Below, piece after piece: positions 983 through 20,400 of a stretch of 28,944 nucleotides of DNA (the first letter of the stretch is position 1; each line of letters starts with the position of its first letter). This DNA is from a virus: IMG/VR virus record IMGVR_UViG_3300000928_000178, positions 1 to 28,944 of that record; one strand, given 5' to 3'. The position numbers and the translations under genes were made by a program. The notes beneath the pieces were generated by a model, which was not told where the DNA came from, made no database searches, and saw only the letters and a program-made list of their open reading frames with translations.

Positions 983-995
983 GAAGTAAACACTT

Positions 996-1025: not shown

Positions 1026-1042
1026 AACTAGGAGAAAATGAA

Positions 1043-1887: not shown

Positions 1888-1908
1888 TCATTATTAAGGA
1901 GAAATATA

Positions 1909-2325: not shown

Positions 2326-2328
2326 TGA

Positions 2329-2352
2329 TTAGGCAGGTGCAAGTCTGCCTAA
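2329..2352 (+). promoter_or_regulatory. Stem-loop after the tail-tube gene
   Basis: TTAGGCAG-GTGCAAGT-CTGCCTAA forms an 8-bp stem. No U-tract follows, so it is more likely a processing or stability element than a terminator. Confidence 0.4.
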
Positions 2353-2378
2353 CCAACCCACACTAAAGGAATAAACTT

Positions 2379-2663: not shown

Positions 2664-2684
2664 CAACTAACAAGGAGAATAGTT

Positions 2685-3032: not shown

Positions 3033-3166
3033 GAGAAAAAGATCTGTATTTTATCTTTTTCTTAGCTGAACAATTAGGCCGCAGTGTTGAGTGGATTATG
3101 CAAAACATGTCAGTAATAGAACTGAAGGGTTGGGCACAATATTACACTATAAAGAATGAAAAATAA
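2685..3166 (+). CDS. Tail assembly chaperone -1 frameshift product (lambda GT-like), shift at 3020-3026
   Basis: The -1 frame has a stop at 3011-3013 and is then open from 3014 to TAA 3164-3166. The only slippery site in that 16-nt window is G GGA AAG. The predicted fusion is about 160 aa and ends ...LAEQLGRSVEWIMQNMSVIELKGWAQYYTIKNEK. Confidence 0.75.
3020..3026 (+). promoter_or_regulatory. Programmed -1 ribosomal frameshift heptamer G GGA AAG
   Basis: An X XXY YYZ heptamer in the zero frame of the chaperone gene, identical to the lambda G/GT slip sequence. Confidence 0.75.
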
Positions 3167-3185
3167 TTGATAAGGAATTAAAACA

Positions 3186-4949
3186 ATGAGTAGCAATTAT
3201 AACATTGATATTACCGCCAAGGACAGCACGAAAGGTGCAATTGGTAGTGTTGGCGGCGGCCTTACTACATTAAACAACAAAGCATCAAAACTTAAAGTAG
3301 CCCTTGGAGCAGCCGCAATTGCGGGTGCAGGTATTATGGCTGGTAAAGCTATACTAGGCGCAATTGATAATATGGATGCACTGGCAAAAAGTGCTAGAGC
3401 AGCCGGTTCAGCAGGTAGCAACGAAGCGTTTCAAGGCTTCCAAGTAATGAAGCAAGCAATGAATGAAGCAGGTATTGATGCTGCTACATTTGATAGAGCT
3501 ATGCTTCAAACGAATTCAAGACTTAAAGCAGGAACAGAAGGGCAGAAATCATTTGCCGCAGTTACTGATAAGTTAGGTGATAGTATTAAGAATTCAAATG
3601 GTGAATTGAAATCAGGTCCTGAATTATTACAGGCAATGATGAATGCACTCAATGAAGGTAAGATCACTACAGAAGATTTTGCAAAGGTTGTTGGTGGACG
3701 TGCAGGTCCTCTTATACAAGAACAGTTTGCAAAAATGCAAGGTTCAGCAGAAGGCTTACAAGCAACACTAGATGATGTTGCGGCAAATACAAACATTGTA
3801 GATGTTGATGCAGCCGCTAACGCAGAATTATTTAATGATACAGTAGGAAGATTAAAAGAAGGTATGGGTCAGTTAATGACTGATGCTATCACACCTCTAC
3901 TACCTGTATTAGTTCAACTAGCAGAAAAGACAATGGCTAACATGCCAGCTATTATTGATGGTGTTACCACAGCCTTTGATGCACTTAAACCAGTATTAAG
4001 TTTAATTGGCACAGTAATAAGTGAAATAGTTTGGCCAATGTTGCAAAATGTATTCAATGTATTAGGCACAGTTGCTGAAGCAATTGCACCATTAGTAGAA
4101 AAATCAATACCATTATTAAAAGAAGGCTTTGAAATAGCCGGTGAAGCAATTAGCACTCTTGTTCAATTCTTTGTTGATTTAGTTGCAAAGATTAAAGCAA
4201 TACCAGAAGAAGTTAAGAAGATGAAAGAAGCTATTGTAGGTAAAATGGGCGACATGGTTTCAGACACAAAGAAAAAACTAAACGGTTGGAAAGATAGTGT
4301 ATTAGGTATCTTTAGCAAAACAGAAGATGAAGCAGTTGGAAACTCTATTATCCCAGACATGGTTGACGCAATCATAGATGAGTTTAGTAGAATGAAAGAT
4401 GTTACTGTTGCAACAACAGAAGACATGAGTGACGGTATTACTGATGAGATGGGTAACGGAATGAAAACTTTTACTGATACATTAACTAATGCGTTTGATG
4501 ATGGTAAGTTAGAAATGAATGACTTTAAAGGTTACTTCAAACAAACAATGTCATCAATGATTAAAGATGCAATCTTTGGTTCAAACAAAATTAGTCAATC
4601 ACTTGGTAGTAGTTTACACGGTGGTGGTGGTGGCAGTAAAGGTAGTGCCGTTGGCAGTTTCTTTAAGACTGTTATTGGTGGGCTATTTGGACGTGCATCA
4701 GGTGGACCAGTATCAAATGGTAGAAGTTATATCGTTGGAGAAAATGGACCCGAGATGTTTACACCAAACAGCAACGGAAACATTGCTAGAAATAATGGTG
4801 GTGCAGGAGGCGGCGGCTTAACAGTTAACTTTAATCTGTCAAGCATTGATTCAAGAAGCGGCACAGAATTTATAATAGAACAAAAGAATCAAATCGTAGG
4901 AATGATTAACCAAGCGTATCAGAAACGCGGCCGACAGGGGATTTATTAA
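3186..4949 (+). CDS. Tail tape measure protein
   Basis: A 587-aa Ala/Gly/Met-rich helical protein that follows the chaperone pair. Its C-terminal Gly-rich region contains the IVGENGPEMF motif typical of tape measures. Confidence 0.9.
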   Translation: MSSNYNIDITAKDSTKGAIGSVGGGLTTLNNKASKLKVALGAAAIAGAGIMAGKAILGAIDNMDALAKSARAAGSAGSNEAFQGFQVMKQAMNEAGIDAATFDRAMLQTNSRLKAGTEGQKSFAAVTDKLGDSIKNSNGELKSGPELLQAMMNALNEGKITTEDFAKVVGGRAGPLIQEQFAKMQGSAEGLQATLDDVAANTNIVDVDAAANAELFNDTVGRLKEGMGQLMTDAITPLLPVLVQLAEKTMANMPAIIDGVTTAFDALKPVLSLIGTVISEIVWPMLQNVFNVLGTVAEAIAPLVEKSIPLLKEGFEIAGEAISTLVQFFVDLVAKIKAIPEEVKKMKEAIVGKMGDMVSDTKKKLNGWKDSVLGIFSKTEDEAVGNSIIPDMVDAIIDEFSRMKDVTVATTEDMSDGITDEMGNGMKTFTDTLTNAFDDGKLEMNDFKGYFKQTMSSMIKDAIFGSNKISQSLGSSLHGGGGGSKGSAVGSFFKTVIGGLFGRASGGPVSNGRSYIVGENGPEMFTPNSNGNIARNNGGAGGGGLTVNFNLSSIDSRSGTEFIIEQKNQIVGMINQAYQKRGRQGIY

Positions 4950-6223
4950 TGATTAACATATTACAATATCCAGACACATCTAATCCACATTATATTGATC
5001 CACTTTACATTGGTGATAACAACAGTGGATTTCAGAAGAGAATAAAAGATTTAAAAGACGGAAACTACATAGCCTTAGCTAATACATTTTCAAGTAGTGT
5101 TGACACTATAATGGAAAACGTTAGTAGATTTAAATATTATTTAAAAAACAACTCACGTTCAGGTAACATAGCAATATATGATATATGGTATAAACCAATG
5201 ATTAGAGGCACAGTAAACAGTTCAGGTGTTATTACTAGTGCTACAATGATTACACCAGGAAATGAACAGTTTAGACAACGCACAGGTGCTAACAGTTATT
5301 CAGGTTCAGCACGTATTAAAGCCAACGGAAGATTTTGGAAAGAAGGCAATAATTCAACTGTATCAATTGCTACTTCAAATGCAAATATTACAATATCTAC
5401 TAACAGTAGTGGTTATGTAACAGGTGCTAGTGGAAGTGGTGGTAGTGGTTACGGAGGTGCAGGCTATGTCATGTTTGAAATAGAACAAGATGCAGCAGAT
5501 ACATATCCAGCAACACCAACGGCATTAGAAGCACAGGACATATGGGACACAGCTGATCAATGGACAGAAGGTGGCGATGCTACTCCAACTAAATATTGGC
5601 CAAGTGTTGTTACACCACAAAGTGCAGAGATTTCATACAAAATGCCATCGACGATAACAAGAAGTCAAAGTGGTAAAAAATATATTCAAAGTGCAGGTTA
5701 TGTAAAGTGGGGACTAGAAGTAACTTATCCACCAATGACAGCTAACCAGTTTAAAGAGTATCACGGTATTGTTCAAGCGGCACGTGGACAAGCAATTCCA
5801 ATGTTATTTAAGTTAGTGCAAAATGGAAACAGCATATTATTTAAAAACTTAAACAGTGGTAATAGTGCAAATGCATTAATACTAAAAGATCCAATTGATG
5901 TTAGTGTAAACGCATTAGTAATACTATTAGAAGGCTTAACAACTGGTGATACACTAAATGAAGGTGATACAATCTTTGGCGCAAATGGTGATGCCAACGG
6001 ACAAATAAATACTATTATAAGCACAGCAAATGCAAACGTATACGGAGAAGCAAAAGTAAGACTTGCATATCCAGTTAAAACTGATCAGCCAGCAGGTAGT
6101 TTTTGGAATACAAGTCCAGATGAAGTTGTTGTTACATTAAACGACAGTGAGTTTGAATATAGTGTATCAACAAACGGTTTATACAATGTAAGCGTTAGAT
6201 TTGAATTGGATGAATGGAAATAA
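4949..6223 (+). CDS. Distal tail protein-like (GTA g12 / lambda M position) with an N-terminal extension of about 210 aa
   Basis: ATGA overlap with the tape measure stop. The C-terminal half (ITRSQSGKKY...WGLEVTYPPMTANQFKEYHGIVQAARGQAIPMLF) matches the pattern I recall for DUF2460-type distal tail proteins. Confidence 0.55.
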   Translation: MINILQYPDTSNPHYIDPLYIGDNNSGFQKRIKDLKDGNYIALANTFSSSVDTIMENVSRFKYYLKNNSRSGNIAIYDIWYKPMIRGTVNSSGVITSATMITPGNEQFRQRTGANSYSGSARIKANGRFWKEGNNSTVSIATSNANITISTNSSGYVTGASGSGGSGYGGAGYVMFEIEQDAADTYPATPTALEAQDIWDTADQWTEGGDATPTKYWPSVVTPQSAEISYKMPSTITRSQSGKKYIQSAGYVKWGLEVTYPPMTANQFKEYHGIVQAARGQAIPMLFKLVQNGNSILFKNLNSGNSANALILKDPIDVSVNALVILLEGLTTGDTLNEGDTIFGANGDANGQINTIISTANANVYGEAKVRLAYPVKTDQPAGSFWNTSPDEVVVTLNDSEFEYSVSTNGLYNVSVRFELDEWK

Positions 6224-6226
6224 AGC

Positions 6227-6841
6227 ATGGCAAATAGAGGAATTACTGGTAACCTATTAAATGAATTAGGTGAACAAATTGTTACATACTTTGATTGCGT
6301 CAGTATTGCAACTAAGCAAAATGGTTCTACTGTTGTATATTATGTAACAAACGCACCACAAGACGTAACTGTTGACGGTAATTTATATGTAGCGTTTGGT
6401 AACTTTCTAAATGTTGGGGTCATTGAAGAAGATACCCAAATGGAAATTCCACAAATGGCTATACAAATATCAGGCATTGCACCATACGAAACTGATGCTT
6501 CACCATATGATGAATCATTTATGCAGACTATGTTAAAAGACACAACTGAATACATAGACCAGACAGTAAAAAGATATAGAGTTTACTTTGATTTAAACTG
6601 GGTAGACAAAGGAAGTGTATTGCTATTTGAGGGACGAATGAGTAATGCAAGCATTACATATGACATAGAAGGTGTTAGTAGTGTGTTGTTAGAAGCAAGT
6701 TCACACTGGATAGACTTTACTAGACGTAATGGACGCTATACAAATCAAAACTCACAACAATCGCGTTACTCAGGCGATGTAGGATTTGAATATTCAAAAC
6801 TACTATTCAAAGACATTAAATGGCAGGAACCTCCAGCATGA
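6227..6841 (+). CDS. Tail-tip protein (lambda L / GTA g13-like)
   Basis: A 204-aa ORF, second gene after the tape measure. The N-terminal pattern YFDCVSIA...VTVDGNLYVAFGNF resembles DUF2163-type proteins. Confidence 0.55.
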   Translation: MANRGITGNLLNELGEQIVTYFDCVSIATKQNGSTVVYYVTNAPQDVTVDGNLYVAFGNFLNVGVIEEDTQMEIPQMAIQISGIAPYETDASPYDESFMQTMLKDTTEYIDQTVKRYRVYFDLNWVDKGSVLLFEGRMSNASITYDIEGVSSVLLEASSHWIDFTRRNGRYTNQNSQQSRYSGDVGFEYSKLLFKDIKWQEPPA

Positions 6842-7269
6842 TATTAGAACAAAAAAGAGACTTAGCTTTATTTTTGGCTGGGCTTAAACACAAAAAACAT
6901 ACCTGGGGCACGTTTGATTGCAACACATGGTGGTGCGAATGGATTGATAGATTAACTGGTTCAGATGTATCTAGTGAAGTTATAGGACATTATCATAATG
7001 AAAAGACTGCAATGAAATTTGCAAGAACTCACAATGCAATTGAATATGTTTTGCGTATGGGATACACACAACTAGATGTTAATGCACCAGAATCAATTCC
7101 TGTTACAGGTGATGTGTGGATTCAAAACCATAGAACACATTATAGTATATTAATGATTTTTAATGGATTAGCTTGGAGCATTAGCAGTGAGCATGGACTA
7201 ATTAGTAGTCACCCAGAGTTATTTTCAACTGATAAAACTGTTGAGACAACTAGGTTTAGGAGAGCATAA
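6838..7269 (+). CDS. Tail-associated NlpC/P60-like peptidase (lambda K / GTA g14 position)
   Basis: I prefer the ATG at 6838 (ATGA overlap with the upstream stop) over the track start at 6820. TWGTFDCNTWW supplies a candidate catalytic Cys and HRTHYSILM a candidate His. The position matches lambda K. Confidence 0.5.
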   Translation: MILEQKRDLALFLAGLKHKKHTWGTFDCNTWWCEWIDRLTGSDVSSEVIGHYHNEKTAMKFARTHNAIEYVLRMGYTQLDVNAPESIPVTGDVWIQNHRTHYSILMIFNGLAWSISSEHGLISSHPELFSTDKTVETTRFRRA

Positions 7270-8738
7270 TGCCAGTAGTAATTCCAATACTCATTAAAGC
7301 AGTTGTTACAGCCGTTATTGTTAAAGCAGTTGACGTAGTAGTTGACGTGATAGTTGAAAAAGTTTTTGGTTCAGATGAAATTGAAACTAGAGATGCATCA
7401 CAAAGCGAAGCACAAGCGGCTGCCAGAGCTAGAGCACTATTAATTAATAAAAGTTCAAACAACTCAGGCATTCCACTTGTATACGGAAAGTATAGAATGG
7501 GTGGAACTAGAGTTTACTTAGAAACATCAAACGGCAACGGTGATATAGCAGATTCAGATGCAGGCAATGAATACTTTAATATGGTGTTAACTTTATGCGA
7601 AGGCGAAATGGGTAACATCAGAGAATTGTATTTTGGTGATATTCTTGTATGGAGTGGTAATGGCAACGACAGTGGTAGTGGTTATCAATTAAGTGGCTAT
7701 ACAGGTGGTAATGAATATTCAGATGCTGATAAAACTGTTAGATATCATAATGGATCAGCTAACCAGGGTGTTGACAGCATGATGCAAACAAGTGTAGGAA
7801 GCAGTAGATGGGGCAGCAATCACAGACTTAGAGGCATAGCATATTTGGCTATTAAACTAAAAGCAAATGCAGACGCTTATGCTGGTGGTGTTCCAGTTAT
7901 TACCGCAGTATTAGAAGGTAAGAATATTCCAAACGTATCAACTATAACCAGTGGACAAACAAGCACACCCACACAAACAGAAAGTGCAAATCAAAACCCT
8001 GCAGATGTTATATATGATTATCTTACAAACACAACATACGGCAAAGGACTAGATCACGACACTAGTGGAAACTATGTTGCAGGACTAGACATTGACATAG
8101 CTAGTTTTAAACAAGCACGTTTAGATTGTGCAAGTGCGTGGAATGGAGCAGGTATAGTATACAACGGCCCATTATCAACAGAACAAAGGATATTTGAAAA
8201 TATACAAAGACTAACTAGAGCATGTAACGGAATGTTAATATGGACAGGCGGAAAGTATAGACTAATAATACAAAATGCCAATGAAACAAGTCAATATAGC
8301 TTTGATGAAGATAACATTATTGGACAAATGAGTGTTCAAAAAGCAAAGAAAGCCAGTAGAGTAAATAAAGTTACTGCAGGATTTACTGACAGTAGTTTAA
8401 ATTATGTTGATAATATTGTAGTTACTAAAGATGCAACTGCATTAGCTGAAGACAACGGCACAGTATTAGAAGTATCAAGTGACCATCAGTTAACTACTAA
8501 TTCAGCATTTGTTACAAGATTAAATCAATACAGAATTGATAAGACTAGAAATCAAATGACAATTTCATTTTCATCAACACATGCAAGTCTAGTAGTAGAA
8601 TGTGGCAACATTGTTAGTGTATCACAAGAAGCATTAAACTGGACTAATAAAAAGTTTAGAGTTGTGTCAATAGAAATAAATGAAAAAGACGAAGTCAAGT
8701 TTGGTGCTATCGAATACGTTCCAAGCATACAAATATAA
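7269..8738 (+). CDS. Tail tip / hub protein, lambda J / GTA g15 N-terminal-like
   Basis: A hydrophobic N-terminus is followed by GIPLVYGKYRMGGTRVY and LTLCEGEMGNIRELYFGD, the hallmark motifs of host-specificity-J/g15-type proteins. At 489 aa it covers only the N-terminal part of typical family members. Confidence 0.7.
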   Translation: MPVVIPILIKAVVTAVIVKAVDVVVDVIVEKVFGSDEIETRDASQSEAQAAARARALLINKSSNNSGIPLVYGKYRMGGTRVYLETSNGNGDIADSDAGNEYFNMVLTLCEGEMGNIRELYFGDILVWSGNGNDSGSGYQLSGYTGGNEYSDADKTVRYHNGSANQGVDSMMQTSVGSSRWGSNHRLRGIAYLAIKLKANADAYAGGVPVITAVLEGKNIPNVSTITSGQTSTPTQTESANQNPADVIYDYLTNTTYGKGLDHDTSGNYVAGLDIDIASFKQARLDCASAWNGAGIVYNGPLSTEQRIFENIQRLTRACNGMLIWTGGKYRLIIQNANETSQYSFDEDNIIGQMSVQKAKKASRVNKVTAGFTDSSLNYVDNIVVTKDATALAEDNGTVLEVSSDHQLTTNSAFVTRLNQYRIDKTRNQMTISFSSTHASLVVECGNIVSVSQEALNWTNKKFRVVSIEINEKDEVKFGAIEYVPSIQI

Positions 8739-8750
8739 GGATAAGTAAAT

Positions 8751-8960
8751 ATGAGTAAGATTAGATTTGATGGAGCTGAAACTCCAGTAATGTTACCAAC
8801 CAAAGAAGATGTTGTAACACAAGCACCAGTTGGTATCTTAAAAGATATTATAATAGATCAAGCCACTGTTGCAACTGGACATTTGCTACAATATAATGCA
8901 AGTGCAACACCAGACCCAGTATGGGAAAATAGTAATGTTATAGATGGTGGAAATTACTAA
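8751..8960 (+). CDS. Small hypothetical virion protein carrying a fibre-type motif
   Basis: A 69-aa ORF with an AAGGA RBS. GHLLQYNASATPDPVWEN resembles the GQVLxWDGxxWxP motif that is repeated in the giant fibre protein. Confidence 0.5.
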   Translation: MSKIRFDGAETPVMLPTKEDVVTQAPVGILKDIIIDQATVATGHLLQYNASATPDPVWENSNVIDGGNY

Positions 8961-9036
8961 CAACATGTAGTCAAGTTAGGTGTCTTAGACGCTCAACAAG
9001 GGCTATATATAGCGTCAAAATAACAAGGATAACCAA

Positions 9037-9528
9037 ATGCCCCAAACCCAACAAAACACAAAAATTCTACGCCTTAAAAGCAGTTTTAACAGAGCACTAA
9101 CATTAGACAAATACAAGCAGTTAGTTCACTTTGTAATAGTAAAAAAATTAAAAGCACACTGTCCAGGAGACTATGTTTGTTACAGATTCTATACAAATTG
9201 TGTAGGTGTTGCAACAAGTGAACCAGATATAAATGAATGGCTCTCACTTCACGACTTAGGTAGTAGACCAGTAATTACTAAAAAACTTAATACTTCAGGC
9301 AAAGTGTTAGCACAAGCAAAACAAAATGGATTTACCAGTCTTGGGTTTGCTGACGGTATAATGCAAAGCAGTGAAAATTTACAAGATGAAATTATGCGTT
9401 TATTAGACAGCGGTCAAACACTTACAAATATTGCTAACAATTTAGGTTGCACAACTGCAAACATATATTACCACAGAAAGAGATACAAAGAACGTATGAA
9501 CAAGCAATTAGAGGTTGACAAAACCTAG
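9037..9528 (+). CDS. DNA-binding protein with a C-terminal Hin/resolvase-type helix-turn-helix
   Basis: A 163-aa ORF. EIMRLLDSGQTLTNIANNLGCTTANIYYHRKRY looks like an HTH_7-type motif. I see no serine-recombinase catalytic domain in the N-terminal part. Confidence 0.6.
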   Translation: MPQTQQNTKILRLKSSFNRALTLDKYKQLVHFVIVKKLKAHCPGDYVCYRFYTNCVGVATSEPDINEWLSLHDLGSRPVITKKLNTSGKVLAQAKQNGFTSLGFADGIMQSSENLQDEIMRLLDSGQTLTNIANNLGCTTANIYYHRKRYKERMNKQLEVDKT

Positions 9529-9544
9529 TTTATACTGTATAAAT
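9515..9544 (+). promoter_or_regulatory. Promoter P0 (sigma70-like)
   Basis: TTGACA (9515-9520), 17 nt, then TATAAA (9538-9543), or 18 nt to ATAAAT with a TG extension. It shares the GGTTGACAA...ACTGTATA context with P4 and P5. The -35 lies inside the 3' end of the HTH gene. The perfect palindrome TTTATAC-T-GTATAAA (9529-9543) overlaps the -10. Confidence 0.6.
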
Positions 9545-9549
9545 ATATA

Positions 9550-9753
9550 TAGTAAGTTAAAAAATAATCAATGATTACTCAGACATTCTCCAAATAATGT
9601 TCAATTTTAGCTTACAGTTGTATAAGGGTGATACTAGGATTCATTGCCTAGCTCCAACAAAATGTAACTGGAAACAGTGCCATATATATTAAAGCAGAAC
9701 TGCCCAATACTTTATACAATGATTCTAAAAAGGCGTCGAAAGGCGTCTTTTTT
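9550..9753 (+). ncRNA. Candidate small RNA or attenuated leader (P0 to terminator)
   Basis: An interval of about 200 nt bracketed by promoter P0 and an intrinsic terminator. It has no ORF of 60 aa or more. The only notable ORF is 31 aa (9597-9692) with no Shine-Dalgarno. An internal hairpin is CTAGG-ATTCATTG-CCTAG (9634-9651). Confidence 0.35.
9727..9753 (+). terminator. Intrinsic terminator with a GAAA tetraloop
   Basis: AAAAAGGCGUC-GAAA-GGCGUCUUUUUU. The 6-bp core has 4 Watson-Crick and 2 G-U pairs, is extended by A-U pairs, and is followed by a T6 tract. The same bases also read as a direct repeat AGGCGTC-GAA-AGGCGTC. Confidence 0.55.
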
Positions 9754-9754: not shown

Positions 9755-9783
9755 TTGACAAATGCACCATTTTGTGCTATAAT
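9755..9783 (+). promoter_or_regulatory. Promoter P1 (perfect sigma70 consensus, extended -10)
   Basis: TTGACA (9755-9760), 17 nt, TGcTATAAT (TATAAT at 9778-9783). The spacer contains AAATG-CAC-CATTT. Confidence 0.8.
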
Positions 9784-9835: not shown

Positions 9836-10216
9836 GTGAGATATTATATTCTAAATTACACAAACGAAACTAGTGCTACGCACGGTAATGACTATTACCA
9901 TGTAAACATATGTAATGAAAACTTAGAAGAGTTTTGGACATATGTATATCCCTTTCAAAAAAACGGCAAGAAAATACACAATGCACAAACTTGGCTTAAT
10001 ATACTACAATGCAAAGAAGGTGTTGTAATAAGTAACCTAAAGTTATTGCCTAATAAGAAACATCTTATTAATGCCGACAGTATAAGACAAGCAAAACCGG
10101 AACAGTTATTTCCTACAAAGCAAGAAATGTATGATCATATAGGTGATTTAATTCACAAACGTGATGTTGAAAAACTTGAAAAACATTTTGATAATGATAT
10201 GTTTGATATAAGTTGA
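9836..10216 (+). CDS. Early hypothetical protein
   Basis: A 126-aa ORF with a GTG start 5 nt after AGGAGA, downstream of P1. I recognise no motif. Its TGA stop lies inside the -35 hexamer of P2. Confidence 0.7.
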   Translation: MRYYILNYTNETSATHGNDYYHVNICNENLEEFWTYVYPFQKNGKKIHNAQTWLNILQCKEGVVISNLKLLPNKKHLINADSIRQAKPEQLFPTKQEMYDHIGDLIHKRDVEKLEKHFDNDMFDIS

Positions 10217-10241
10217 CAAAAACAAATAACTATATTATAAT
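10213..10241 (+). promoter_or_regulatory. Promoter P2 (perfect sigma70 hexamers)
   Basis: TTGACA (10213-10218), 17 nt, TATAAT (10236-10241). Confidence 0.8.
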
Positions 10242-10247
10242 ACTAAC

Positions 10248-10620
10248 ATTGGCTAATACAAAACTAACACAGAACCCTTACATACCCTCCTTGACAACAC
10301 AGCATTGAAGGCTAGAGAAACACTAGTTTAGAAACTTGCTTGAGGGGTTGCGTTTTCCAACTAATGAAAACTGACTAGACATATGAATGCAACTGTAGGC
10401 AGAAAGCATTCTTAAAAATCACTGGTGTATGGTAAGCAGGAACGAGCCAAATGTCTTATAGTCTCTAAAAACACCCTAGGCTGTAGTAGCCTACTTATGA
10501 CTGAAGAGATCTAATAAGTTATATTATATAATAACAAATAAACCACATATAAATGTTTAATGTTCCACTTAAGAAGAGAAAAAAAATAAACAGAAAAAAC
10601 TCTTTAGAGTTTTGATGTTT
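10248..10620 (+). ncRNA. Candidate structured leader / ncRNA downstream of P2
   Basis: About 420 nt lie between P2 and the next start codon (10666), and the longest + strand ORF there is 20 codons. The 5' 270 nt look more GC-rich than the flanks and contain hairpins GAATGC-15 nt-GCATTC (10385-10411) and TAGGCT-GTAGT-AGCCTA (10477-10493). A possible helix pairs AACCCTT (10273-10279) with AGGGGTT (10343-10349). A weak hairpin plus T-run sits at 10596-10621. Confidence 0.3.
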
Positions 10621-10665
10621 TCTGTTGCCTGAAAGGGAACAGATTATAAAGGAGTAAATACTAAT

Positions 10666-11433: not shown

Positions 11434-11462
11434 AACCCATTGAAATATATGGGTTTCTTTTT
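11434..11462 (+). terminator. Intrinsic terminator
   Basis: AACCCAT-TGAAATAT-ATGGGTT forms a 7-bp stem followed by TCTTTTT. Confidence 0.7.
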
Positions 11463-11473
11463 GTAGAAAAAGG

Positions 11474-11502
11474 TTGACAAAAGCAAGACATCTTGCTATA
11501 AT
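11474..11502 (+). promoter_or_regulatory. Promoter P3 (perfect consensus, extended -10) with a spacer palindrome
   Basis: TTGACA (11474-11479), 17 nt, TGcTATAAT (TATAAT at 11497-11502). The palindrome AGCAAGA-CA-TCTTGCT lies at 11482-11497. Confidence 0.8.
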
Positions 11503-11546
11503 ATATATATAACAATTAAGTTATAACAACAAACGGAGCGTAAATT

Positions 11547-12107
11547 ATGAGTAAGAAATTAAACGGTAAAGCAAAAGCAAAAGCAAGAGCAAAAGCATTT
11601 AAGGCAAAACAAGCGTCTAAGGCAACTAAGGCAACTGTTAAGAGTCTATTACACCCAAATACAGATCTTGTAGGGTTTTATTGGGGTTACAAAGCAAATG
11701 ATAATGTTAACGGCTTTGAATTTTCAAATATGACACTTGATGCAATGGGTATGTCTAGAGTAGATGCAATTCAAATGGGTGCACATTTTAAAGAATGTGC
11801 TGATAAACAAGTAAGCGTCTTAAAAACAAATAGGACTATGCAAGTGTATAATCAATCCAGAGAAGAGTTTGTTGCTGAAGAAAAAGCAAGAATGATTTGG
11901 GCAAGTAAAGAGTTAGCTAAGATGACTAAAGGTCCATTTCAGTTTAACAAAGATCTTATTCAAAATCTTATAATTTGGACCTGTGCTATTTCAACTTGTG
12001 TTGCAGCTGGTGTTTTAGAACAAGATGAATGGAATGGTGATAAGTTTAGTCATATTCAATGTGCTGATCCAAGTATTAGAGCAGCAATGTTTGGGGAAAC
12101 AGCGTAA
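11547..12107 (+). CDS. Early protein with a Lys/Ala-rich histone-H1-like N-terminus
   Basis: A 186-aa ORF. Its N-terminus is KAKAKARAKAFKAKQASKATKATVK and it ends in ...GETA. I do not recognise the C-terminal domain. Confidence 0.7.
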   Translation: MSKKLNGKAKAKARAKAFKAKQASKATKATVKSLLHPNTDLVGFYWGYKANDNVNGFEFSNMTLDAMGMSRVDAIQMGAHFKECADKQVSVLKTNRTMQVYNQSREEFVAEEKARMIWASKELAKMTKGPFQFNKDLIQNLIIWTCAISTCVAAGVLEQDEWNGDKFSHIQCADPSIRAAMFGETA

Positions 12108-12173
12108 TAAAAAGGTTGACAAGTAAGACATCTTACTGTATACTATAAGTATAGACAATAAAGTTTATAACAA
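12099..12173 (+). repeat. Promoter cassette copy B (near-identical to 12843-12917)
   Basis: The 75 nt ACAGCGTAATAAAAAGGTTGACAA.TAAGACATCTTA.TGTATACTATAAGTATAGACAATAAAGTTTAT.ACA differ from copy C at 3 positions. Confidence 0.9.
12116..12144 (+). promoter_or_regulatory. Promoter P4 with a spacer palindrome
   Basis: TTGACA (12116-12121), 17 nt, TGTATACT (TATACT at 12139-12144). The palindrome AGTAAGA-CA-TCTTACT lies at 12122-12137. A second inverted repeat, TATAC-TATAA-GTATA, lies at 12139-12153. Confidence 0.75.
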
Positions 12174-12191
12174 CAAAACGGAGAAATACAA

Positions 12192-12851
12192 ATGACAAAA
12201 CTAACAACACCACAAAACGCACTAACGCATGTTAAAGCATACATTTTTGAAATCATTCAACATCAAGAACGGGCTATGATGTGGATGAGTCCAGATTACA
12301 AAGCAGAATGTGAAAAATATGTTGGTGATGCGTCATCAAAAAGTTTACAAATAGCAAGTTTTGTTGATGAGTGTATACGTGATGCTAAAACTTTTGTAGA
12401 AGTAAAAAACATTCTTAAAGATATGTATAGCAAAGGACCAAATGCACCAGAGCGTTGTTATACACAAAGGATCTTTCCACTTATTGAAAAGTTTTACAAT
12501 GCAATGAAAAAGGTAGTTCCTAACCTTGAATACAAATCTCATGCTGGAACTGAATGCAGAGGCTGGTGGCGTGTGTTTGGTGAGATTTCAGGACATGATT
12601 CATATTTCTGTAGCTATGATCTTGGGCGTGATATTGGAATGGCAATTGATTTTAGAAATGCAGGTGCTATTACACAACAACAATACAACAACCACGTAAC
12701 AAAACGGACACTTAATATGCTAGGTTCTAAACGCTTCCAAACAAATGGACAGCCAGATGCAAAGTTAGTCTTAGGTTATCTTAAACCTGAATACCAAACT
12801 AATGAATATTTTGATATGCGTTTTGTTAATTGTGTAGAGGAGACAGCGTAA
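12192..12851 (+). CDS. Early hypothetical protein
   Basis: A 219-aa ORF with a GGAGA RBS, downstream of P4. It ends in ...EETA. No motif recognised. Confidence 0.75.
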   Translation: MTKLTTPQNALTHVKAYIFEIIQHQERAMMWMSPDYKAECEKYVGDASSKSLQIASFVDECIRDAKTFVEVKNILKDMYSKGPNAPERCYTQRIFPLIEKFYNAMKKVVPNLEYKSHAGTECRGWWRVFGEISGHDSYFCSYDLGRDIGMAIDFRNAGAITQQQYNNHVTKRTLNMLGSKRFQTNGQPDAKLVLGYLKPEYQTNEYFDMRFVNCVEETA

Positions 12852-12917
12852 TAAAAAGGTTGACAACTAAGACATCTTAGTGTATACTATAAGTATAGAC
12901 AATAAAGTTTATGACAC
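12843..12917 (+). repeat. Promoter cassette copy C (near-identical to 12099-12173)
   Basis: See copy B. The offset between the copies is 744 nt. Confidence 0.9.
12860..12888 (+). promoter_or_regulatory. Promoter P5 with a spacer palindrome
   Basis: TTGACA (12860-12865), 17 nt, TGTATACT (TATACT at 12883-12888). The palindrome ACTAAGA-CA-TCTTAGT lies at 12866-12881. Confidence 0.75.
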
Positions 12918-12931
12918 AAATGGAGAATACA

Positions 12932-13087
12932 ATGAATACATTAACCAAAAAAGAATTAATCCAAGCACTTACGTCAATTGTTGAACTTACACAAGAAGAC
13001 ATTGACGATTTGTGGGACAATCACAGTGAAAAAGAAGTTGCAGAAGTGTTATTATCGTATACCAAACTTAATGAGGAGACAGCGTAA
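12932..13087 (+). CDS. Small early protein (51 aa), absent from the ORF track
   Basis: ATG at 12932, preceded by a GGAGA RBS and downstream of P5. Translation: MNTLTKKELIQALTSIVELTQEDIDDLWDNHSEKEVAEVLLSYTKLNEETA. Its stop overlaps the next start (TAATG). Confidence 0.65.
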   Translation: MNTLTKKELIQALTSIVELTQEDIDDLWDNHSEKEVAEVLLSYTKLNEETA

Positions 13088-13434
13088 TGACAATTGATAA
13101 ATTCAAAGCAAATCAACAAGAAGAATTAATGATACAAAAATTAGCAGGCAAGGCAGCAGTGGTTGACTTCCTAGAACCTTTAAATGAACTACAAGATCTT
13201 GTTACAAAACTAGGTCAAAAACAAATGAGCAAGTTGAATGTAAGCAAAGAAGAAAAGACTGTTTTGGCTGCTTATAGAGAAGAACTTAATACACAGGTTA
13301 AAAACTTGCAACACATGGTGTATACAGTAGCAGATCAACTTGATGTTGATACAGCATCTTTAAGCACTCATTTAGATAACCTTACAAGAAAATTTGAATT
13401 TAAACTTTATATTATTAAAAAGGAGACAGCGTAA
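13087..13434 (+). CDS. Early hypothetical protein (coiled-coil-like)
   Basis: A 115-aa ORF, translationally coupled on both sides. It ends in ...KETA. Confidence 0.7.
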   Translation: MTIDKFKANQQEELMIQKLAGKAAVVDFLEPLNELQDLVTKLGQKQMSKLNVSKEEKTVLAAYREELNTQVKNLQHMVYTVADQLDVDTASLSTHLDNLTRKFEFKLYIIKKETA

Positions 13435-13664
13435 TGGCTAAAACAACTAAAAAAACTAAAACAACTGAAGCACCTAAGGAAGATGCAGTAAGTATAAGTA
13501 TTCAAGATATTGTGCTATCAGCAAATATCATTGACCTTGCTACACAACGTGGTGCATTTAAGGCCGGAGAAGCAAGTCAAGTAGGCGCATGCTTTGACAG
13601 ACTTGTGGCTTTTATCAAAGCAAATACACCAGAAGAAGAGGCACCAACAGAAGAAACAGCCTAA
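13434..13664 (+). CDS. Early hypothetical protein
   Basis: A 76-aa ORF with a basic, Thr/Lys-rich N-terminus and an acidic C-terminus ending in ...EETA. Confidence 0.7.
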   Translation: MAKTTKKTKTTEAPKEDAVSISIQDIVLSANIIDLATQRGAFKAGEASQVGACFDRLVAFIKANTPEEEAPTEETA

Positions 13665-13709: not shown

Positions 13710-13755
13710 CCCACAATAGACTTTTATGCTAAGAGTTCTCTATTGTGGGTTTTTT
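13710..13755 (+). terminator. Intrinsic terminator closing the early region
   Basis: CCCACAATAGA-18 nt-TCTATTGTGGG forms an 11-bp perfect stem followed by T6. Two more hairpins precede it: ATTGC-GAGA-GCAAT (13669-13682) and GTTTACT-AGAGTT-AGTAAAC (13684-13703). Confidence 0.8.
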
Positions 13756-14439: not shown

Positions 14440-17400
14440 ATGAGCACATATACAATATTGCCTAAAGATGATAGCAACTTAGGCGTAACGGTTATCAGTG
14501 ATGACCAGAGTCAAGTAATAGTAGTTGACTCAGCAACACAACAAGTAACAGTAACAGAGAATGTAATTAGCGTAAGCGTTACACCTGGTCTTATTGGCAG
14601 TTTAACTGTTGATAGTGTTAATGGTAAAACAGGCTTAGTTGTTTTAAACGCTGATGACATTAGTGAAACAGCAGACCCTGCCGGAAACAAATATTACACA
14701 GCCGCAAGAGATACTGCACAATTCAATATTGATTTAGCATTAAAGACCACAGACGATTTAACTGAAGGTTCAACTAACGAATACTACACAGACGCTAAAG
14801 CCAGAGCCGCACTAACAGGTGCAGGCGATATTAACTACAATCAAACTACAGGTGTTATATCATTTGATAGTTCAAGTTTAGTTACAAGTGTAAACGGACA
14901 AGATGGTGCCGTTGTATTAAGCACAACAAACATTGCAGAAGGAACTAACGCATACTGGACACAGGTTCGATTTGACAACGCATTAAGCAGTTCGTCTACA
15001 GATGAATTACTTGAAGGAAGCACAAACCTTTATTACACACCAGGCAGAGTTCAACAGGTTATTACTGCAAACACAGAACAATTTATTAAAGCTGATTCAA
15101 CAGAAACACTCACAAACAAATCAGGCAACAACTCAATGTTTGCTAATGATTCAGATTACCTTACTAGTATTAATGGAAGAATTGGCCCATCAGCTACAAT
15201 GGACACAGATGATTTACAAGAGCCAGCAGTTGGTGCCACAAACAAATACTTTACAGAGGCAAGATCAAGAGCGTCAATTAGTGTAACAGACACTGGTGGA
15301 GATGGAAGTTTAAGTTATAACAACACTACAGGTGTTCTTACTTTTACAGGCCCAGCACCAAGTGATGTTAGAGTATTAGTAAGTGCCGTTGATGCAGGTG
15401 GAGATGGAAGCTTTGGTTACAATCAAAGCACAGGTGAATTTACATACACAGGACCAACACCCACTGAAGTTCGTTCACACTTTACAGTAAATGATTTAGG
15501 CGGTGACGGAAGCATCACGTATGATAATACTACAGGTGTAATTGATTACACTGGACCAAACCAAGCTGAAGTTAGAGCACACATTACTAAAGTCTTTGTA
15601 GATGCATTAGGCATTCAAGCTACAAGTGTAGACGCAGACAGTGTTGCATTAGGCACAGATACAACAGGTGATTATGTTAAAACAATAGCAGGAACACCAA
15701 ACAAAATTGAAGTAAGCGGAAGTGGAACAGAAGGTAGACCAGTTACATTAACATTACCAAGCACAGTTCAGATTGCACAAGATCTAACTGTAGGCGGAAA
15801 CTTAACTGTAAGCGGTGACTTAACTTACCTAAACACTACAGACTTACAAATACAAGATAATCTATTTGAACTTAACAGTGGCTTAACAGGCACTCCAGTT
15901 AATGATAGTGGAATGCTTATACAAAGAGGCAATCAAACTAATCAAATCTTTATGTGGGACGAAAGTGTAGACAAGTTTACATTGGGTGCGACAGCAAGTG
16001 AAGATGGCGCTAGAGGAAACATCAACGTTACAGTTGGAACATTGGTTGCAGACATTGAAGGTAATTTAACTGGTGATGTTACAGGTAATGTTACAGGTAA
16101 CGTAACAGGCAATACAACAGGAGTTCACACAGGCGCAGTAACCGGAGATGTAACTGGAGATATAACTTCAACTGGCACATCAACATTTACAACAGCTGAT
16201 ATTAACGGTGGAAACATTGATGGCACTATAATTGGTGCAGTAACAACAGCCGCAGGATCATTTACAACAGTAAACGCAAGTGGAGCCATTACAGGTAACT
16301 TAACTGGTAATAGTGCAGGACAACATACAGGTTCTGTAGTGGGAACAAGTGTAAGTGCAAGTGTTGGATTTACAGGTGATGTTCAAGGTGATACAAGCGG
16401 AACACATACAGGTCCTGTAAGTGGTAATGTTTCAGGTAACTTAACAGGTAATGTAACAGGTGACTTAGTAGGTAATACTTCAGGTGGAACACACACTGGA
16501 CCAGTAACCGGAGATGTAACAGGTAACTTAGCAGGTGATTCAACAGGAACACACACTGGTCAAGTTAACGGAACAACTGTTACTGCAAGTGGCGGATTCA
16601 CAGGCACATTAGTAGGTAATGTTACAGGCAATGTTCAAGGTAATGTCCAAGGTGATTTAACTGGTGATGTTACAGGTAAAATAACTTCAACAGGCACAGG
16701 CTCACAAAAGAGTGTATTCACAGAAGTTGATATTAATGGTGGCACAATAGACGGCACACCAATTGGCGGCAATGTAGCAAGCACAGGTGAATTTACAACT
16801 GTATCAACCACAGGTTCAATCACTGCCAACACAGGCTTTGTTGGAGACTTAACAGGTGATGTTACAGGTAATACAACAGGACATCATTTTGGTGATGTGA
16901 CAGGAAACTTATCTGGATCAGTTACTGGTAATGTTCAAGGTAACACAGAAGGTGATTTAACAGGTGATGTTTATGCAGGCAACGGCACAAGTAAAATACT
17001 TGAAAATGGCACCAATGGAACTGATGCAGTATTTACAGGTAATGTAACTGGAAATGTTACAGGAACTGTTTCAACCTTATCAAATCACGACACAGGCGAT
17101 TTAGCAGAAGGTTCAAATCAATATTATACAGATGCCAAAGTATTAACTAAGATTAACAACACAAGCATTGATGGTTTAAGTGATGTTGACACCAGCACAA
17201 CTGCACCAACAACTGCACAAGTATTAGAATGGGATGGAACTAATTGGGTCCCAGGTGATTCAGGTATTGGTGATGTTACACAAACAGGAACACAAACACT
17301 ATCAAACAAAACATTATTAGGTCAAAAGGTTGATTATATTGGGCCAATAAATGTTGGTGACCCAGTTACAATAAATAAAATTAGATCTAATGCAGGTAGC

Positions 17401-20400
17401 ACTGGGCAAATTAACCCAAGCAATTATGGCGGGCAATTAGCTGCAACAAACGCCACTGCTACAATTAATTCAGACAGATTTCAGTTTAATAATATTCCAA
17501 GTGGAGGAAACCCAACTTCATATCCAGGATATGGATGGTCAACTCAATTAGCTGCACGAGAAGGTTATACAGGTTCAAATCCATGGCTTGGTAAAGCAAT
17601 TGTTGACATATCATTAACCAGGGAACCAATTAGTGGACTAAGCACTACTGAATTCTTAAGTGCTAAAGCTCTTTATGGAGGTGGCTTTTCAACTAAAACA
17701 ATTAACAAGACTGTAGCTCCCAACACAGGCAGCTACTATAATATCAGACCAAAATCAACTGATGGACATTTAAGTGAGTTAACTTTAACTGGATCATCAG
17801 CATATACTAATGCATTATCTCCACAAAGTGATAGCAATTGGCAATACAACAGATTAAAAAGCACAACCAATGGAATTACATTAGCAAACTTAGATATAGA
17901 TGGTAGTGCAATATCATTTTATGGCAATGAATATAGGCTTCCAAACACAGACGGAACAAGTGGTCAAGTATTATACACAGATGGTAACGGTAATATAAGT
18001 TGGACTGCAGCAGTTGGAACAGTTTCAAGTGTTAACGGAGAAGTTGGCACAGTTGTATTAAACACTGACCATGTTGATGAAGACGCTAACCCTGTAAACA
18101 AATATTTCACAGATGCTAGAGTAGAAAGTAAATTAAACATTACCAACCTAGATGAGATACAAGATGTTGTTTATACATCTGCACCACAGGCTGGTGAAGT
18201 GTTGCTATGGGATAGCACTGTTTTTCCAAACGGCGCATGGAGACCAAACACAGTATCAGGAACAGGAACTGTAACAGGTATTACAGCAGGTGATCATTTA
18301 GCTGTTGGAGGTGGCGGAACATCTATTATTACTACCGCTGGAACATTAAATGTAGAAACAGGTGGCGCAGGTGGAATTGTAACAACAGATGGATTCAACA
18401 GATTACCACCCTTAAACGCAAGTCAATTATTAGATCTGCCTGACTCAGGTGTGCAAAGTATTACAGCTTCAACTGGTTTAACAGGTGGAACAATCACTGG
18501 CACTGGAACAATTGCAGTAGATGTAGGTCAGACAGCAGGCAAGATTGTTCAGATAGATGGCAATGGTAAATTACCAAGTGTAGACGGTTCACAGTTAACA
18601 AACTTACCACCAACTGGTGTGCAAAGTGTTACAGCCGGAACAGGTTTATATACAATAGGTAATCAACCTATTACAAACACTGGAACATTATATGTTGATG
18701 TTGGAACAACCGCAAACAGAATTGTTCAATTAGACTCTAATGCAAAGCTACCAGCAGTAGATGGTTCACAGTTAACAAACTTACCAGCTAGTGCAGCACA
18801 AACACTAACGTTTAGTTCACCAGACTTATCACTATCAGGCGGAGGCGGCACTGTTGACTTATCAACGTTAACACCAAGCTCAATGGCGTGGAGTTCAATT
18901 ACAAGCACACCAACTACTATTAGTGGATACGGAATTACAGACGCATTTGATGGAGCATACAGCTCATTAAGTGGACTACCAACATTGTTCAGTGGTGCAT
19001 ATGCAGACCTAAGTGGAAAACCAACATTATCTACAGTAGCAGGAACAGGTGATTACAGTGATCTATTAAACAAGCCAACATTATTTGATGGAGCATTTAG
19101 TAGTTTAACTGGAACACCAACTACAATTAGTGGATACGGAATTACAGATGGTGTTACATTAACTGGAACAGAAACACTAACAAACAAAACAATACCAGCT
19201 TTTACTGGTAATGAAATCAAATACACAGCCAACAGTGGAAGTGGTAATAACTTCCAGGCACTAAAGATTGTTAATGAATATGATTCGACTTTAACACCAG
19301 ACTATTCAAATTTTAATGGTGCATTCCAAATACAAAACTATACACAAGCTAGTTCAGACTGGATTAATGTTTTACAATTCCAAACACCAAACAAGAAGAA
19401 CATGTTTAGGCTTCACATTGACAACTCAGATTTTGTAGCCAATGATGGAAATATAACTGACAAAAACTTTACAGCTGGTAATTTTTTAACTGGCAAAACA
19501 TATAAAATTGTTAGTGTTGGAACCACAGACTTTACAACTATTGGTTCAGCCAATAACAATGTTAACACATTATTTGTAGCCACAGGTGCAGGTAGTGGAA
19601 CAGGAACAGCTGATGCTTGGGACACTGGTTCACACTATTCAACATTTAGTATGAAAGGTGCAGACAACATTGGCTTTGTAAAAGCAAGTGACGGATTTGT
19701 TATTGGTGTTAAATATAAGATCTTTACTGTTGGAACCACAGACTTTACAGCAGTTGGTTCAGCAGACAACAATGTAGGCACAGAATTTGTTTGTTCTACA
19801 GCAGGTTCAAGTGGAACAGGTATAGCAGTTGATCAAAGACCTTTTAAAGGACAGAAAAACAGATTTAGTTCTTACACTGCTCATCAAAGCCCAAATACAT
19901 GGCCAACTAATTTAGATTTTGACGCTAACACTATCAGCTTCCATAGTGAATATGTATTCCCAACCAGTGACGGTAGCAGTGGACAAATATTAACAACAGA
20001 TGGTGCAGGACAATTAAGTTTTACAAGCCCAAGTGGATCTGGAACTGTAACAAGTGTAGATAGTGGAACAGGATTAACAGGTGGACCAATAACAGGTTCA
20101 GGAACATTAAATGTTGATGTTGGAACAACTGCAAACAAGATAGTTCAATTAGATTCAAATGCAAAACTACCAGCAGTAGACGGAAGTAACTTAACAAACT
20201 TACCAAGTGGCGCTGCTCAAACACTTAGCTTTACGAGTCCTAACTTAACAATAAGTGGAAGTTCAAGCACAGTAGACCTAAGTGCATTAAGCACAACATC
20301 ATTGGCATGGAGTGCCTTAACAGCAACACCAACTACGATTGCAGGCTATGGAATAACAGATGCATTTGATGGCAATTATAATAATTTAACAAACAAACCA

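Follow-up and report, generated by a model that had tools for sequence, protein, structure and literature searches.

A candidate operator dyad within the promoter spacers of uncultured marine phages

Background

What is the use of a palindrome that lies between the -35 and -10 boxes of a phage promoter? The question is raised by the IMG/VR virus record IMGVR_UViG_3300000928_000178, whose positions 1 to 28,944 (28,944 nt, the whole stretch of DNA analysed, hereafter the window) contain three strong sigma-70-type promoters, namely P3, P4 and P5, each with an inverted repeat of two 7-nt arms around two central bases in its spacer. A first-pass annotation, made from the letters of the window alone, had regarded these promoters as early-promoter cassettes and proposed that the palindrome may be an operator for a dimeric regulator, or alternatively a hairpin, on repeated cassettes recalling the promoter-early-stem-loop (PeSL) elements of T4-type phages. 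Transcriptional control in uncultured marine phages is almost unknown, and the gap is clear in the non-cyanobacterial T4-like and jumbo phages, many of which are without the AsiA/MotA system of T4; the dyad is a concrete and testable handle on early-gene shut-off. In this study we followed the palindrome through marine viral contigs, bacterial genomes and known phages. With a probability of about one half, and judging from sequence comparison, the palindrome would be an operator of dyad symmetry, whose dimeric binding protein keeps RNA polymerase off the promoter, and it would travel on PeSL-like cassettes beside variable genes.

Results

Three promoters of the window hold a perfect dyad in the spacer

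Between 9515 and 12888 the + strand has six strong promoters of the sigma-70 type. Together with their dyads and the duplicated cassette around P4 and P5, they are as follows.

9515..9543, + strand: P0, consensus-like, without dyad, its -35 lying within the conserved ..LEVDKT end of a helix-turn-helix (HTH) gene
9755..9783, + strand: P1, a perfect sigma-70 promoter without AAGA-NN-TCTT dyad
10213..10241, + strand: P2, a perfect sigma-70 promoter without dyad
11474..11502, + strand: P3, with TTGACA at 11474-11479, a 17-nt spacer, TATAAT at 11497-11502 and a TGn extended -10
11482..11497: P3 dyad AGCAAGA-CA-TCTTGCT, the core starting 6 nt after the -35 (register 5)
12099..12172, + strand: cassette copy 1, made up of the upstream gene's stop codon, AAAAAGG, P4 and the 5'-untranslated region (5'-UTR)
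12116..12144, + strand: P4, with TTGACA at 12116-12121, a 17-nt spacer and TATACT at 12139-12144
12122..12137: P4 dyad AGTAAGA-CA-TCTTACT, register 3, the commonest form in the family
12843..12916, + strand: cassette copy 2, which holds P5
12860..12888, + strand: P5, with TTGACA at 12860-12865, a 17-nt spacer and TATACT at 12883-12888
12866..12881: P5 dyad ACTAAGA-CA-TCTTAGT

The positions of P3, P4 and P5, their 17-nt spacers and their perfect 7+2+7 inverted repeats were all found again as first annotated, and the three promoters match TTGACA-17-TATAAT/TATACT at 11-12 of 12 positions. The layout described as shared by the three holds for the consensus boxes, but the TGn extended -10 is in register only at P3; nor is the dyad placed uniformly, that of P3 being 2 nt further from the -35 and overlapping the first T of the -10. 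The window has exactly three copies of AAGACATCTT, all of them within the P3-P5 spacers, and with one mismatch allowed there are 4 occurrences against 2.7 expected, which is not above chance, so that the significance of the dyad rests on its placement and not on its count.

The repeat that contains P4 and P5 (12095-12172 and 12839-12916) is 95% identical over 78 nt. The duplicated cassette proper had been given as 75 nt; it spans 74 nt (12099-12172), and its three differences, two of them complementary, were confirmed. These differences are at 12123, 12136 and 12169, the first two of which form a complementary pair of the arms. By a rough estimate, two of three differences would fall on a mirrored and still complementary pair with P ~0.003, and the compensatory change is therefore real within the window genome.

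The half-sites are conserved and tied to promoter spacers

When IMG/VR was scanned with the pattern TTGACA-N2-6-AAGACATCTT, at least 120 loci matched. Among the 135 matches listed, 86 have the gap of 3 that is the spacing of P4 and P5, and about 75 of the matches listed belong to promoters that read AAAGG-TTGACA-A..AAGACATCTT...G-TATAMT, of which a contig often has several. Two further scans were made to remove the bias of this query, one by the flanks only and the other by the outer context only. Selection by the flanks (AAGGTTGACA-N17-TATAnT-N4-GTATA) collected 73 unique spacers, of which 29 read exactly AAGA-NN-TCTT, 9 are one-mismatch variants and 35 are unrelated. Selection by the outer context with the core left open (GGTTGACAAGT-N10-ACTGTATA) collected 63 unique contexts; 58 of them read AAGA, AAGG or GAGA followed by NN-TCTT, with TCTT in 58/58, and here the central two bases vary, with C, T or A at the first and A, G or T at the second. 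The core AAGA-CA-TCTT had been thought invariant from the three copies of the window. Across 137 unique related promoters the half-sites AAGA and TCTT are indeed fixed, but the central CA varies, and the family consensus is AGTAAGAC-R-TCTTACT.

The association with promoters is strong. In the 92 family loci, which add up to 795 kb, Y-AAGA-NN-TCTT-R was counted 153 times, and 138 of these occurrences are within strict TTGAC-N17-TAnnnT spacers, whereas simulations give 4-12 expected anywhere in the 795 kb; we conclude that the dyad is a real element, that it is under selection and that it belongs to promoter spacers. In 104 of the 137 promoters the distance from the -35 to the start of the core is 3 nt, and in the others it is 2 nt (n=17), 5 nt (n=9), 8 nt (n=5) or 4 nt (n=2), P3 sharing the 5-nt register with the 9 promoters of that class. 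GGAG and an ATG follow about 40 nt after the predicted start site, as they do in 122 of 130 family promoters, and a terminator hairpin lies just upstream at P3 and in 28 of the 130 (22%).

The palindrome was also observed outside spacers. In four loci (L076 ~7340-7385, L160 ~6625-6670, L167 ~9015-9060 and L174 ~220-265), AGTAAGA-NN-TCTTACT tips a 14-bp intrinsic terminator stem, GAGGGCTAGTAAGAnnTCTTACTAGTCCTC then T7, whose loop dinucleotide varies; these dyad-tipped terminators sit in a conserved structured intergenic region.

The carriers are phages of unrelated groups

Only a handful of the dyad carriers are relatives of the window (L003, L074, L078, L087, L130, L211 and the metagenome contigs L236, L242 and L244), and the number of dyad cassettes per relative is from 0 to 3, with two in L236, one in L074 and none in L233. 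Most other carriers have UvsX, UvsY, gp32, ClpP and IF-3 genes on source contigs of up to 238 kb, and these are T4-like or jumbo myoviruses; by eye, ribosomal protein S21, IF-3, ClpP and ClpS were identified on dyad-bearing myovirus contigs. In a third group, consisting of small phages, the motif is shifted onto the -10 (L248). The dyad is common to small siphovirus-like phages and large T4-like myoviruses without shared genes.

Searching 185,579 bacterial and archaeal species, each represented by a single genome, for the promoter with the motif gave three unrelated, chance-like matches only, and an origin from a host promoter or host operator was dropped on these grounds. Among GenBank phages, BLAST with the short cassette in three variants returned only weak, mostly coding, chance-like matches. 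Neither HTVC026P nor HTVC111P, both of them Pelagibacter phages, has the motif, and it was equally missing from the first 50 kb of HTVC008M, whose early promoters in that part have another spacer signature, TTTATnTGA-TATAAT; because of this difference and the absence from the Pelagibacter phages examined, a SAR11 host is not indicated. Since the motif is absent from bacterial genomes, GenBank phages and those Pelagibacter phages, it appears that its carriers are virulent and that their marine host is uncultured or has escaped sampling. In the published literature searched for the motif only primers matched, and the motif is not present in the pelagimyophage paper. The motif is widespread in the promoters of uncultured marine phages and, as a cis-element, apparently undescribed.

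Other spacer signatures were met beside it. Three promoters of L246 (3032, 3922 and 5060) have a repeated non-palindromic spacer of their own, GTGTATGTTGATCTCT, and one of them stands before a homologue of the 219-aa (amino acid) gene of the window; phage-specific spacer signatures seem common in small marine phage genomes. In L383-L394, a sister T4-like clade, promoters share TACCAAAATAGG directly before TTGACT, and the spacer of one syntenic promoter holds TTTGCGCCTAGGCGTGC, a GC-rich near-palindrome; this looks like a different promoter signature in related phages.

A dyad operator as the favoured reading

In the mechanism that we favour, the selected core consists of the half-sites AAGA and TCTT with two free bases between them, placed inside the -35/-10 of consensus sigma-70 cassettes. 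A dimeric DNA-binding protein sitting on the dyad would cover about -28 to -13 and block the host RNA polymerase, and the dyad promoters P3, P4 and P5 would be shut off, or timed apart from the dyad-less P0-P2. The cassettes, each with a promoter, a ~40-nt leader and a Shine-Dalgarno sequence before a variable accessory gene, would be shared among unrelated marine phages in a PeSL-like way. Protein binding, repression and the identity of the binder are what we infer from the observed conservation, placement and distribution.

Several observations fit this picture. The element has dyad symmetry with conserved half-sites and a non-conserved centre, and it overlaps the polymerase footprint. Its register is variable (-1, +1, +2 and +5 bp), as would be expected of a protein that binds separately rather than of a polymerase contact at a fixed place; the latter is hard to reconcile with both the register shifts and the existence of dyad-less cassettes, the two classes, with and without dyad and otherwise identical, occurring in the same genomes. 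An activator would not be needed, because the promoters are already consensus with 17-nt spacers. The proposal of an operator for a dimeric regulator thus remains the best-fitting one, the dyad being real and selected, but the binder was not found.

Two DNA-binding proteins were considered as candidates.

9037..9528, + strand: 163-aa protein with a C-terminal GerE/LuxR-type HTH, the window's only clear transcription-factor candidate and a weak candidate for the binder
L199 2352-2618, and about 50 more T4-like loci (L323-L368): 89-aa winged-helix HTH_39 gene

In the structure model of the GerE-type protein, which is of moderate quality with a predicted local distance difference test (pLDDT) score of 67, a disordered linker joins an alpha/beta domain at the N-terminus to a three-helix HTH. 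The model matches the HTH domains of RcsB-DNA and NarL-DNA locally (0.6-1.0 A); Foldseek gave no match with E <0.04, only local LuxR/GerE-type HTH matches, and the GerE-HTH family has 26 homologues. By analogy, GerE-type dimers do bind dyads of this kind, and the half-site TAAGA resembles the TCTAAGA of RcsB, whose half-sites are TTAGGAA/TCTAAGA (PMC5829831).

The HTH_39 gene in the T4-like loci is always behind a dyad-less cassette, with two dyad-bearing cassettes flanking it, and the spacer of its own cassette varies freely between lineages. Where the copies are at least 75% identical, all 50 of 50 loci have dyad promoters within 4 kb, and for more distant copies 29 of 30 loci are without them. 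Such an arrangement is attractive for a regulator that would escape its own control. A homologue of HTH_39 was not found in the window. As for sites known from bacteria, a resemblance to the MetJ met-box (AGACGTCT) or to NsrR sites was rejected, since a met operator needs tandem boxes and the flanks misfit.

A number of findings weigh against an operator, or against either candidate as its binder. Whole cassettes are near-identical over 40-75 nt, and part of the conservation may come from recent spread instead of selection. Deviations in the core are asymmetric, A-to-G being seen nine times in the left arm and the mirror change never in the right one, which a symmetric dimer does not predict. 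In the four loci mentioned above the palindrome is the tip of an intrinsic terminator. The relatives L233 and L239 keep the GerE-type HTH gene (63-65% identity) with no dyad promoter between it and the terminase; the case for this protein as the regulator is weakened thereby, and the protein must have another job, perhaps late activation. Sister clades with a 55-67% identical HTH_39 have no spacer dyad and no alternative one either, and because of this and the absence of a homologue from the window, the co-occurrence of HTH_39 and dyad holds at the clade level only. No DNA-binding protein common to all carriers was found by tblastn with the window proteins or by hidden Markov models (HMMs) of the GerE-HTH and HTH_39 families, and comparing the presence of genes and of dyads among the window relatives gave no consistent partner.

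As no DNA-binding protein is common to the carriers in the sequence available, a host factor or differing phage factors remain. A phage-encoded factor that differs between phage groups is a tentative possibility, a host factor is less likely than that, and the window's own GerE-type protein ranks no better than the latter and perhaps slightly below it. It is distinctly unlikely that the dyad is the shared operator of a cross-phage network, in which unrelated small siphoviruses and large T4-like myoviruses of one uncultured marine host would have interchangeable promoter cassettes and respond to one dimeric factor. If this were true, the shared factor would be a host protein or a repressor encoded by just some of the phages, it could time early genes and silence the cassette-bearing early promoters of co-infecting competitors, and inter-phage interference or host-state sensing would be built into a mobile promoter.

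Possible spread as a passenger or possible intrinsic promoter function

A different explanation is that the promoter unit spreads by recombination, both inside one phage genome and from one to another, in the manner of PeSL elements, and that the palindrome is inherited with it without a function of its own. The 95% identity of P4 and P5 over 78 nt agrees with this, as do the identity of P4 over ~44 nt to T4-like cassettes (e.g. L049 and L062) and the fact that cassettes flank genes gained or lost between relatives, as told by the counts for L236 (two), L074 (one) and L233 (none). What is more, L246 repeats GTGTATGTTGATCTCT three times with no dyad symmetry and other small phages have repeated spacers of their own, so that uniformity of spacers within a genome arises anyway. 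A mere passenger, however, would not account for the constancy of the eight half-site positions amid variation in the centre, outer arms, -10 hexamer and flanks, for the motif standing in five registers, or for its persistence across phage groups without shared genes. We hold this explanation to be unlikely; even if it were correct, the motif would still document PeSL-type promoter exchange beyond T4-type phages.

It is more doubtful that the motif is an intrinsic element, by which the spacer would tune promoter strength, DNA shape or open-complex formation for the host polymerase, possibly modified by the phage, with no regulator at all, much as in the extended consensus of T4 early promoters. 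Early promoters of phages are conserved beyond the needs of sigma-70, 76% of the copies stand in one register, and the motif always comes with a near-consensus -35/-10, a conserved GG upstream and a conserved start region. On the other hand, the registers differ by up to 5 bp, that is half a helical turn, the motif is missing from about half of the otherwise identical cassettes, and dyad symmetry serves no asymmetric polymerase contact. The promoter with the motif is also absent from the 185,579 bacterial species, apart from the three chance-like matches.

Arm covariation, a possible hairpin and a possible crossover site

The choice between a protein-binding dyad and a paired structure depends on the arms. 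From the three window copies it had been concluded that symmetry is kept by compensatory substitutions, and this fails as a rule, the outer pairs being non-complementary in 25-39% of 92 related promoters. A search for the cassette in relatives, with a test of arm covariation, showed no general covariation. The pair next to the core is T-A in 43, T-G in 31, C-G in 30 and C-A in 29 of the 137 unique promoters, which is indistinguishable from independence (p ~0.09). At the next pair outward G-C leads (69), and a left C at this position 2 of the arm is paired with G in just 6/36. Perfect 7-bp arms are found in 31 of the 137 (23%). By pair-counting in the 92 promoters of the common register, non-standard pairs make up 39%, 29% and 25% at the three outer positions; overall pairing is 86.6% vs 84.5% in shuffles, an excess of a size that related sequences can produce without structure, and the inner four pairs are uninformative on covariation because they never vary.

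Closer to the window, P5 has an orthologous promoter in most relatives, and of its nine orthologues within the family of the window four are perfect. L074 and L211 have AGT..AGT, which is intermediate between AGT..ACT of the consensus and ACT..AGT of the window, and the P3 orthologue in L211 has identical arms around the centre AG. The second inverted repeat noted earlier over the -10 is present, both as TATAC-TATAA-GTATA at 12139-12153 and 12883-12897 and as TTTATAC-T-GTATAAA at 9529-9543. It shows no covariation, its C-G pair being broken in 46% of the promoters, and it fails as a paired structure because the downstream GTATA is conserved whatever the -10 reads.

A hairpin in read-through RNA, or in single-stranded or supercoiled DNA, which would act as a processing site, a pause site or a cruciform, is consequently poorly supported, given the weak folds, the broken outer pairs and a dyad upstream of the start, and we give it very little chance. 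In its favour, the three copies of the window are all perfect, the difference between P4 and P5 includes a complementary pair, the RNA folds of the window copies reach -7 to -8.5 kcal/mol (z -2.1 to -3.2), and family pairing is slightly above that of shuffles; moreover, the core deviations are A-to-G and confined to the left arm, where G-U pairs would be preserved on the + strand, and the same palindrome tops the terminator stem in L076, L160, L167 and L174. Nevertheless, the outer pairs are broken in 39%, 29% and 25% of the 92 promoters, C-A mismatches (29) are as common as C-G pairs (30) beside the core, and only 23% of the family have perfect arms. A stem of 4 bp closed by a loop of 2 nt, which is all that is conserved, cannot fold by itself, the start site of each promoter is downstream of its dyad, and the DNA folds are of -2.8 to -4.5 kcal/mol, those of P4 and P5 (-2.8, z ~-0.9) being no better than shuffles.

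Equally improbable is a crossover site at which a site-specific recombinase or nuclease would move promoter-plus-gene cassettes, for although serine-recombinase crossover sites resemble a dyad with a variable 2-bp centre, cassettes border variable genes and the HTH protein has a weak match to HTH_7 (resolvase HTH, E 0.0065), a recombinase catalytic domain was not found in the window, the half-sites are just 4-7 bp, and the exclusive placement in promoter spacers would be left unexplained.

Genes, terminators and other features around the promoters

Returning to the operator reading, the dyad promoters lie within the following surroundings.

1-8960, + strand: tail genes (tail tube, tape measure, hub, Phage-tail_3 protein)
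3' of the HTH gene 9037-9528: a 4.7-kb region dense in promoters and small genes
11434..11462, + strand: intrinsic terminator AACCCAT-loop-ATGGGTT with a T-run, just 5' of P3
11508..11525, + strand: hairpin TATAAC-AATTAA-GTTATA in the 5'-UTR, where the P3 transcript is predicted to begin
11547..12107, + strand: 186-aa accessory gene behind P3, missing in the closest relatives
12192..12851, + strand: 219-aa accessory gene behind P4, missing in the closest relatives
12911..13664, + strand: P5 operon of three small genes (58, 115 and 76 aa)
13710..13755, + strand: strong intrinsic terminator CCCACAATAGA...TCTATTGTGGG with T6, which ends the region driven by the palindromic promoters
14440-22803, + strand: 2787-aa open reading frame (ORF), a fibre, with 12-nt-periodic and longer internal repeats and a weakly galactose-binding-like C-terminus

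Strong sigma-70-type cassettes in a terminator-bounded region fit an early transcription unit, in agreement with the earlier view of the promoters as early ones. P3 has a PeSL-like layout of terminator and promoter, given the intrinsic terminator directly upstream, whose stem-loop spans 11434-11455; P4 and P5 are without an upstream terminator hairpin, and there the stop codon of the upstream gene is 11 nt before the -35. That each cassette precedes a single ORFan gene was only partly right, since the 186-aa and 219-aa proteins are not strict ORFans and P5 heads three genes. The two proteins have 24 and 18 homologue clusters, respectively, in marine metagenomes, with no Pfam domain found in either, and their homologues in other small marine phages sit behind those phages' own repeated promoters.

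The 76-aa acidic protein of the P5 operon (13434-13664) has homologues in the family loci L201 (64% identity), L149 and L175, plus L087, and its gene is the only one of the window found shared with loci beyond the window's own phage family. Where genes adjoin, GGAGACAGCGTAA(TG) recurs as a junction at 12839-12853, 13075-13089 and 13423-13437 of the window and also in L067 and L046; it gives several unrelated small proteins their ..ETA ends and, at once, the next gene its ribosome-binding site and start codon. The predicted 5' ends of the P4 and P5 transcripts (12150-12169 and 12894-12913) have a hairpin TATAGAC-AATAAA-GTTTATA, and such 5'-end hairpins of the P3, P4 and P5 transcripts, which are kept in the window's family, may be mRNA-stabilising stem-loops.

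The dyad-less promoters have features of their own. P0 overlaps the stop of the HTH gene, its -35 GGTTGACAA coding for the conserved C-terminal ..EVDK, and is followed by ~190 ORF-free nt and by a terminator at 9727-9752. Directly 3' of P2 there are ~425 ORF-free nt (10242-10665), which are a candidate phage non-coding RNA, the stretch downstream of P0, within 9515-9752, being a second candidate small RNA. The first ~45 nt behind P2 (ACTAACAtTGGCTAAtACAA...CACAGAACCCTTACA) are kept behind the orthologous promoter in L230, L236, L003 and L211, and only the CAGAACCCTTA part of this stretch is kept in L087 and L242; the candidate RNA has no Rfam match even at E<=1, and its fold z-score is just -1.2. 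The spacer of P1 (9761-9777) has an inverted repeat of its own, GCAC-N6-GTGC, which reads ACAC..GTGT or GCACT..AGTGC in the orthologues (L236, L074, L003 and L087) and could be a second operator type or a by-product of a TGTGn extended -10.

Regarding the window as a genome, every long ORF is on the + strand, and the order 3' of the promoter region is the 2787-aa fibre ORF, the large terminase and the portal; the fibre is a very large receptor-binding one considering a genome of 29 kb. In the relative L230 a homologue of the window's last gene, one extra gene and a homologue of its first gene follow each other, and because the ends are so joined via one gene the window is a near-complete, circularly permuted genome of ~29 kb. 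The closest cultured relatives are the Pelagibacter phages HTVC026P and HTVC111P, with 45% (terminase) and 37% (portal) amino acid identity; GenBank phages show no nucleotide similarity to the window, and Rfam and tRNA scans of it gave no matches. With a tape-measure protein, a tail tube and an HTVC111P-like terminase within ~29 kb, this is not a T4-type myovirus, and the window phage is siphovirus-like.

Comparison with known systems

Promoters of the N4 virion RNA polymerase depend on an essential hairpin, have no sigma-70 boxes and need a giant virion polymerase. They share with P3-P5 a short inverted repeat in an early promoter, but the window has consensus sigma-70 boxes and the arms of its dyad do not covary. 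An N4-type hairpin promoter was rejected, as the 2787-aa ORF is a fibre without a polymerase domain and sigma-70 boxes are present.

In temperate phages, the C1 operators of P1, the stoperators of mycobacteriophage L5 and the conserved inverted repeats of phiC31 are repressor sites, and the likeness to them lies in many copies of a short site at promoters across the phage genome, served there by one phage repressor. Those phages are temperate with known repressors, however, and the P1 and L5 sites are asymmetric, whereas here there is no integrase and no prophage copy, nothing cassette-like occurs in 185,579 bacterial genomes, and the dyad is common to unrelated phages. The early promoters of T4, which have an extended consensus (reviewed in PMC2988021), are likewise conserved well beyond the -35/-10 hexamers. 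That consensus is without a dyad and is read by the (modified) polymerase itself, in contrast with the present motif, which is symmetric, shiftable within the spacer and optional.

NarL sites are 7-2-7 heptamer pairs. The dyad has the 7+2+7 inverted-repeat geometry of GerE/LuxR-type sites (NarL, RcsB), and its half-site TAAGA is near that of RcsB; the half-sites of RcsB are wider apart, though, and the window's HTH protein is without a receiver domain. The resemblance to RcsB and NarL sites is a lead by analogy.

The nearest likeness is that to the PeSL elements, and the parallel drawn at the outset was apt, the cassette being found in many T4-like contigs and beside variable genes. In both, early promoters close to the sigma-70 consensus are repeated together with a Shine-Dalgarno sequence and a start codon, both stand at the borders of small variable genes, with gain and loss of cassette and gene between relatives, and most carriers of the dyad cassette are T4-like contigs. 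In PeSL elements, by contrast, the stem-loop is a terminator and precedes the -35 (Arbiol et al. 2010, PMC2839356; Comeau et al. 2014, PMC4122927), and neither of the two papers has the word "spacer" or "palindrome" or mentions a spacer dyad. Because the dyad lies inside the spacer, unlike the upstream stem-loop, and the window phage is a siphovirus-like one of ~29 kb and not a T4-type myovirus, we did not file the element as a PeSL.

For the carriers, it is promoter cassettes and not genes that unrelated phages have in common. A motif of 10-16 bp marks one early-promoter class in well over 100 environmental phage contigs, beside a second class of otherwise identical promoters that lacks it, and it offers a sequence tag for early regions, possibly also for linking phages with a common host. 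By analogy, the element would act as a mobile promoter unit of the PeSL type, with an operator-like dyad in addition.

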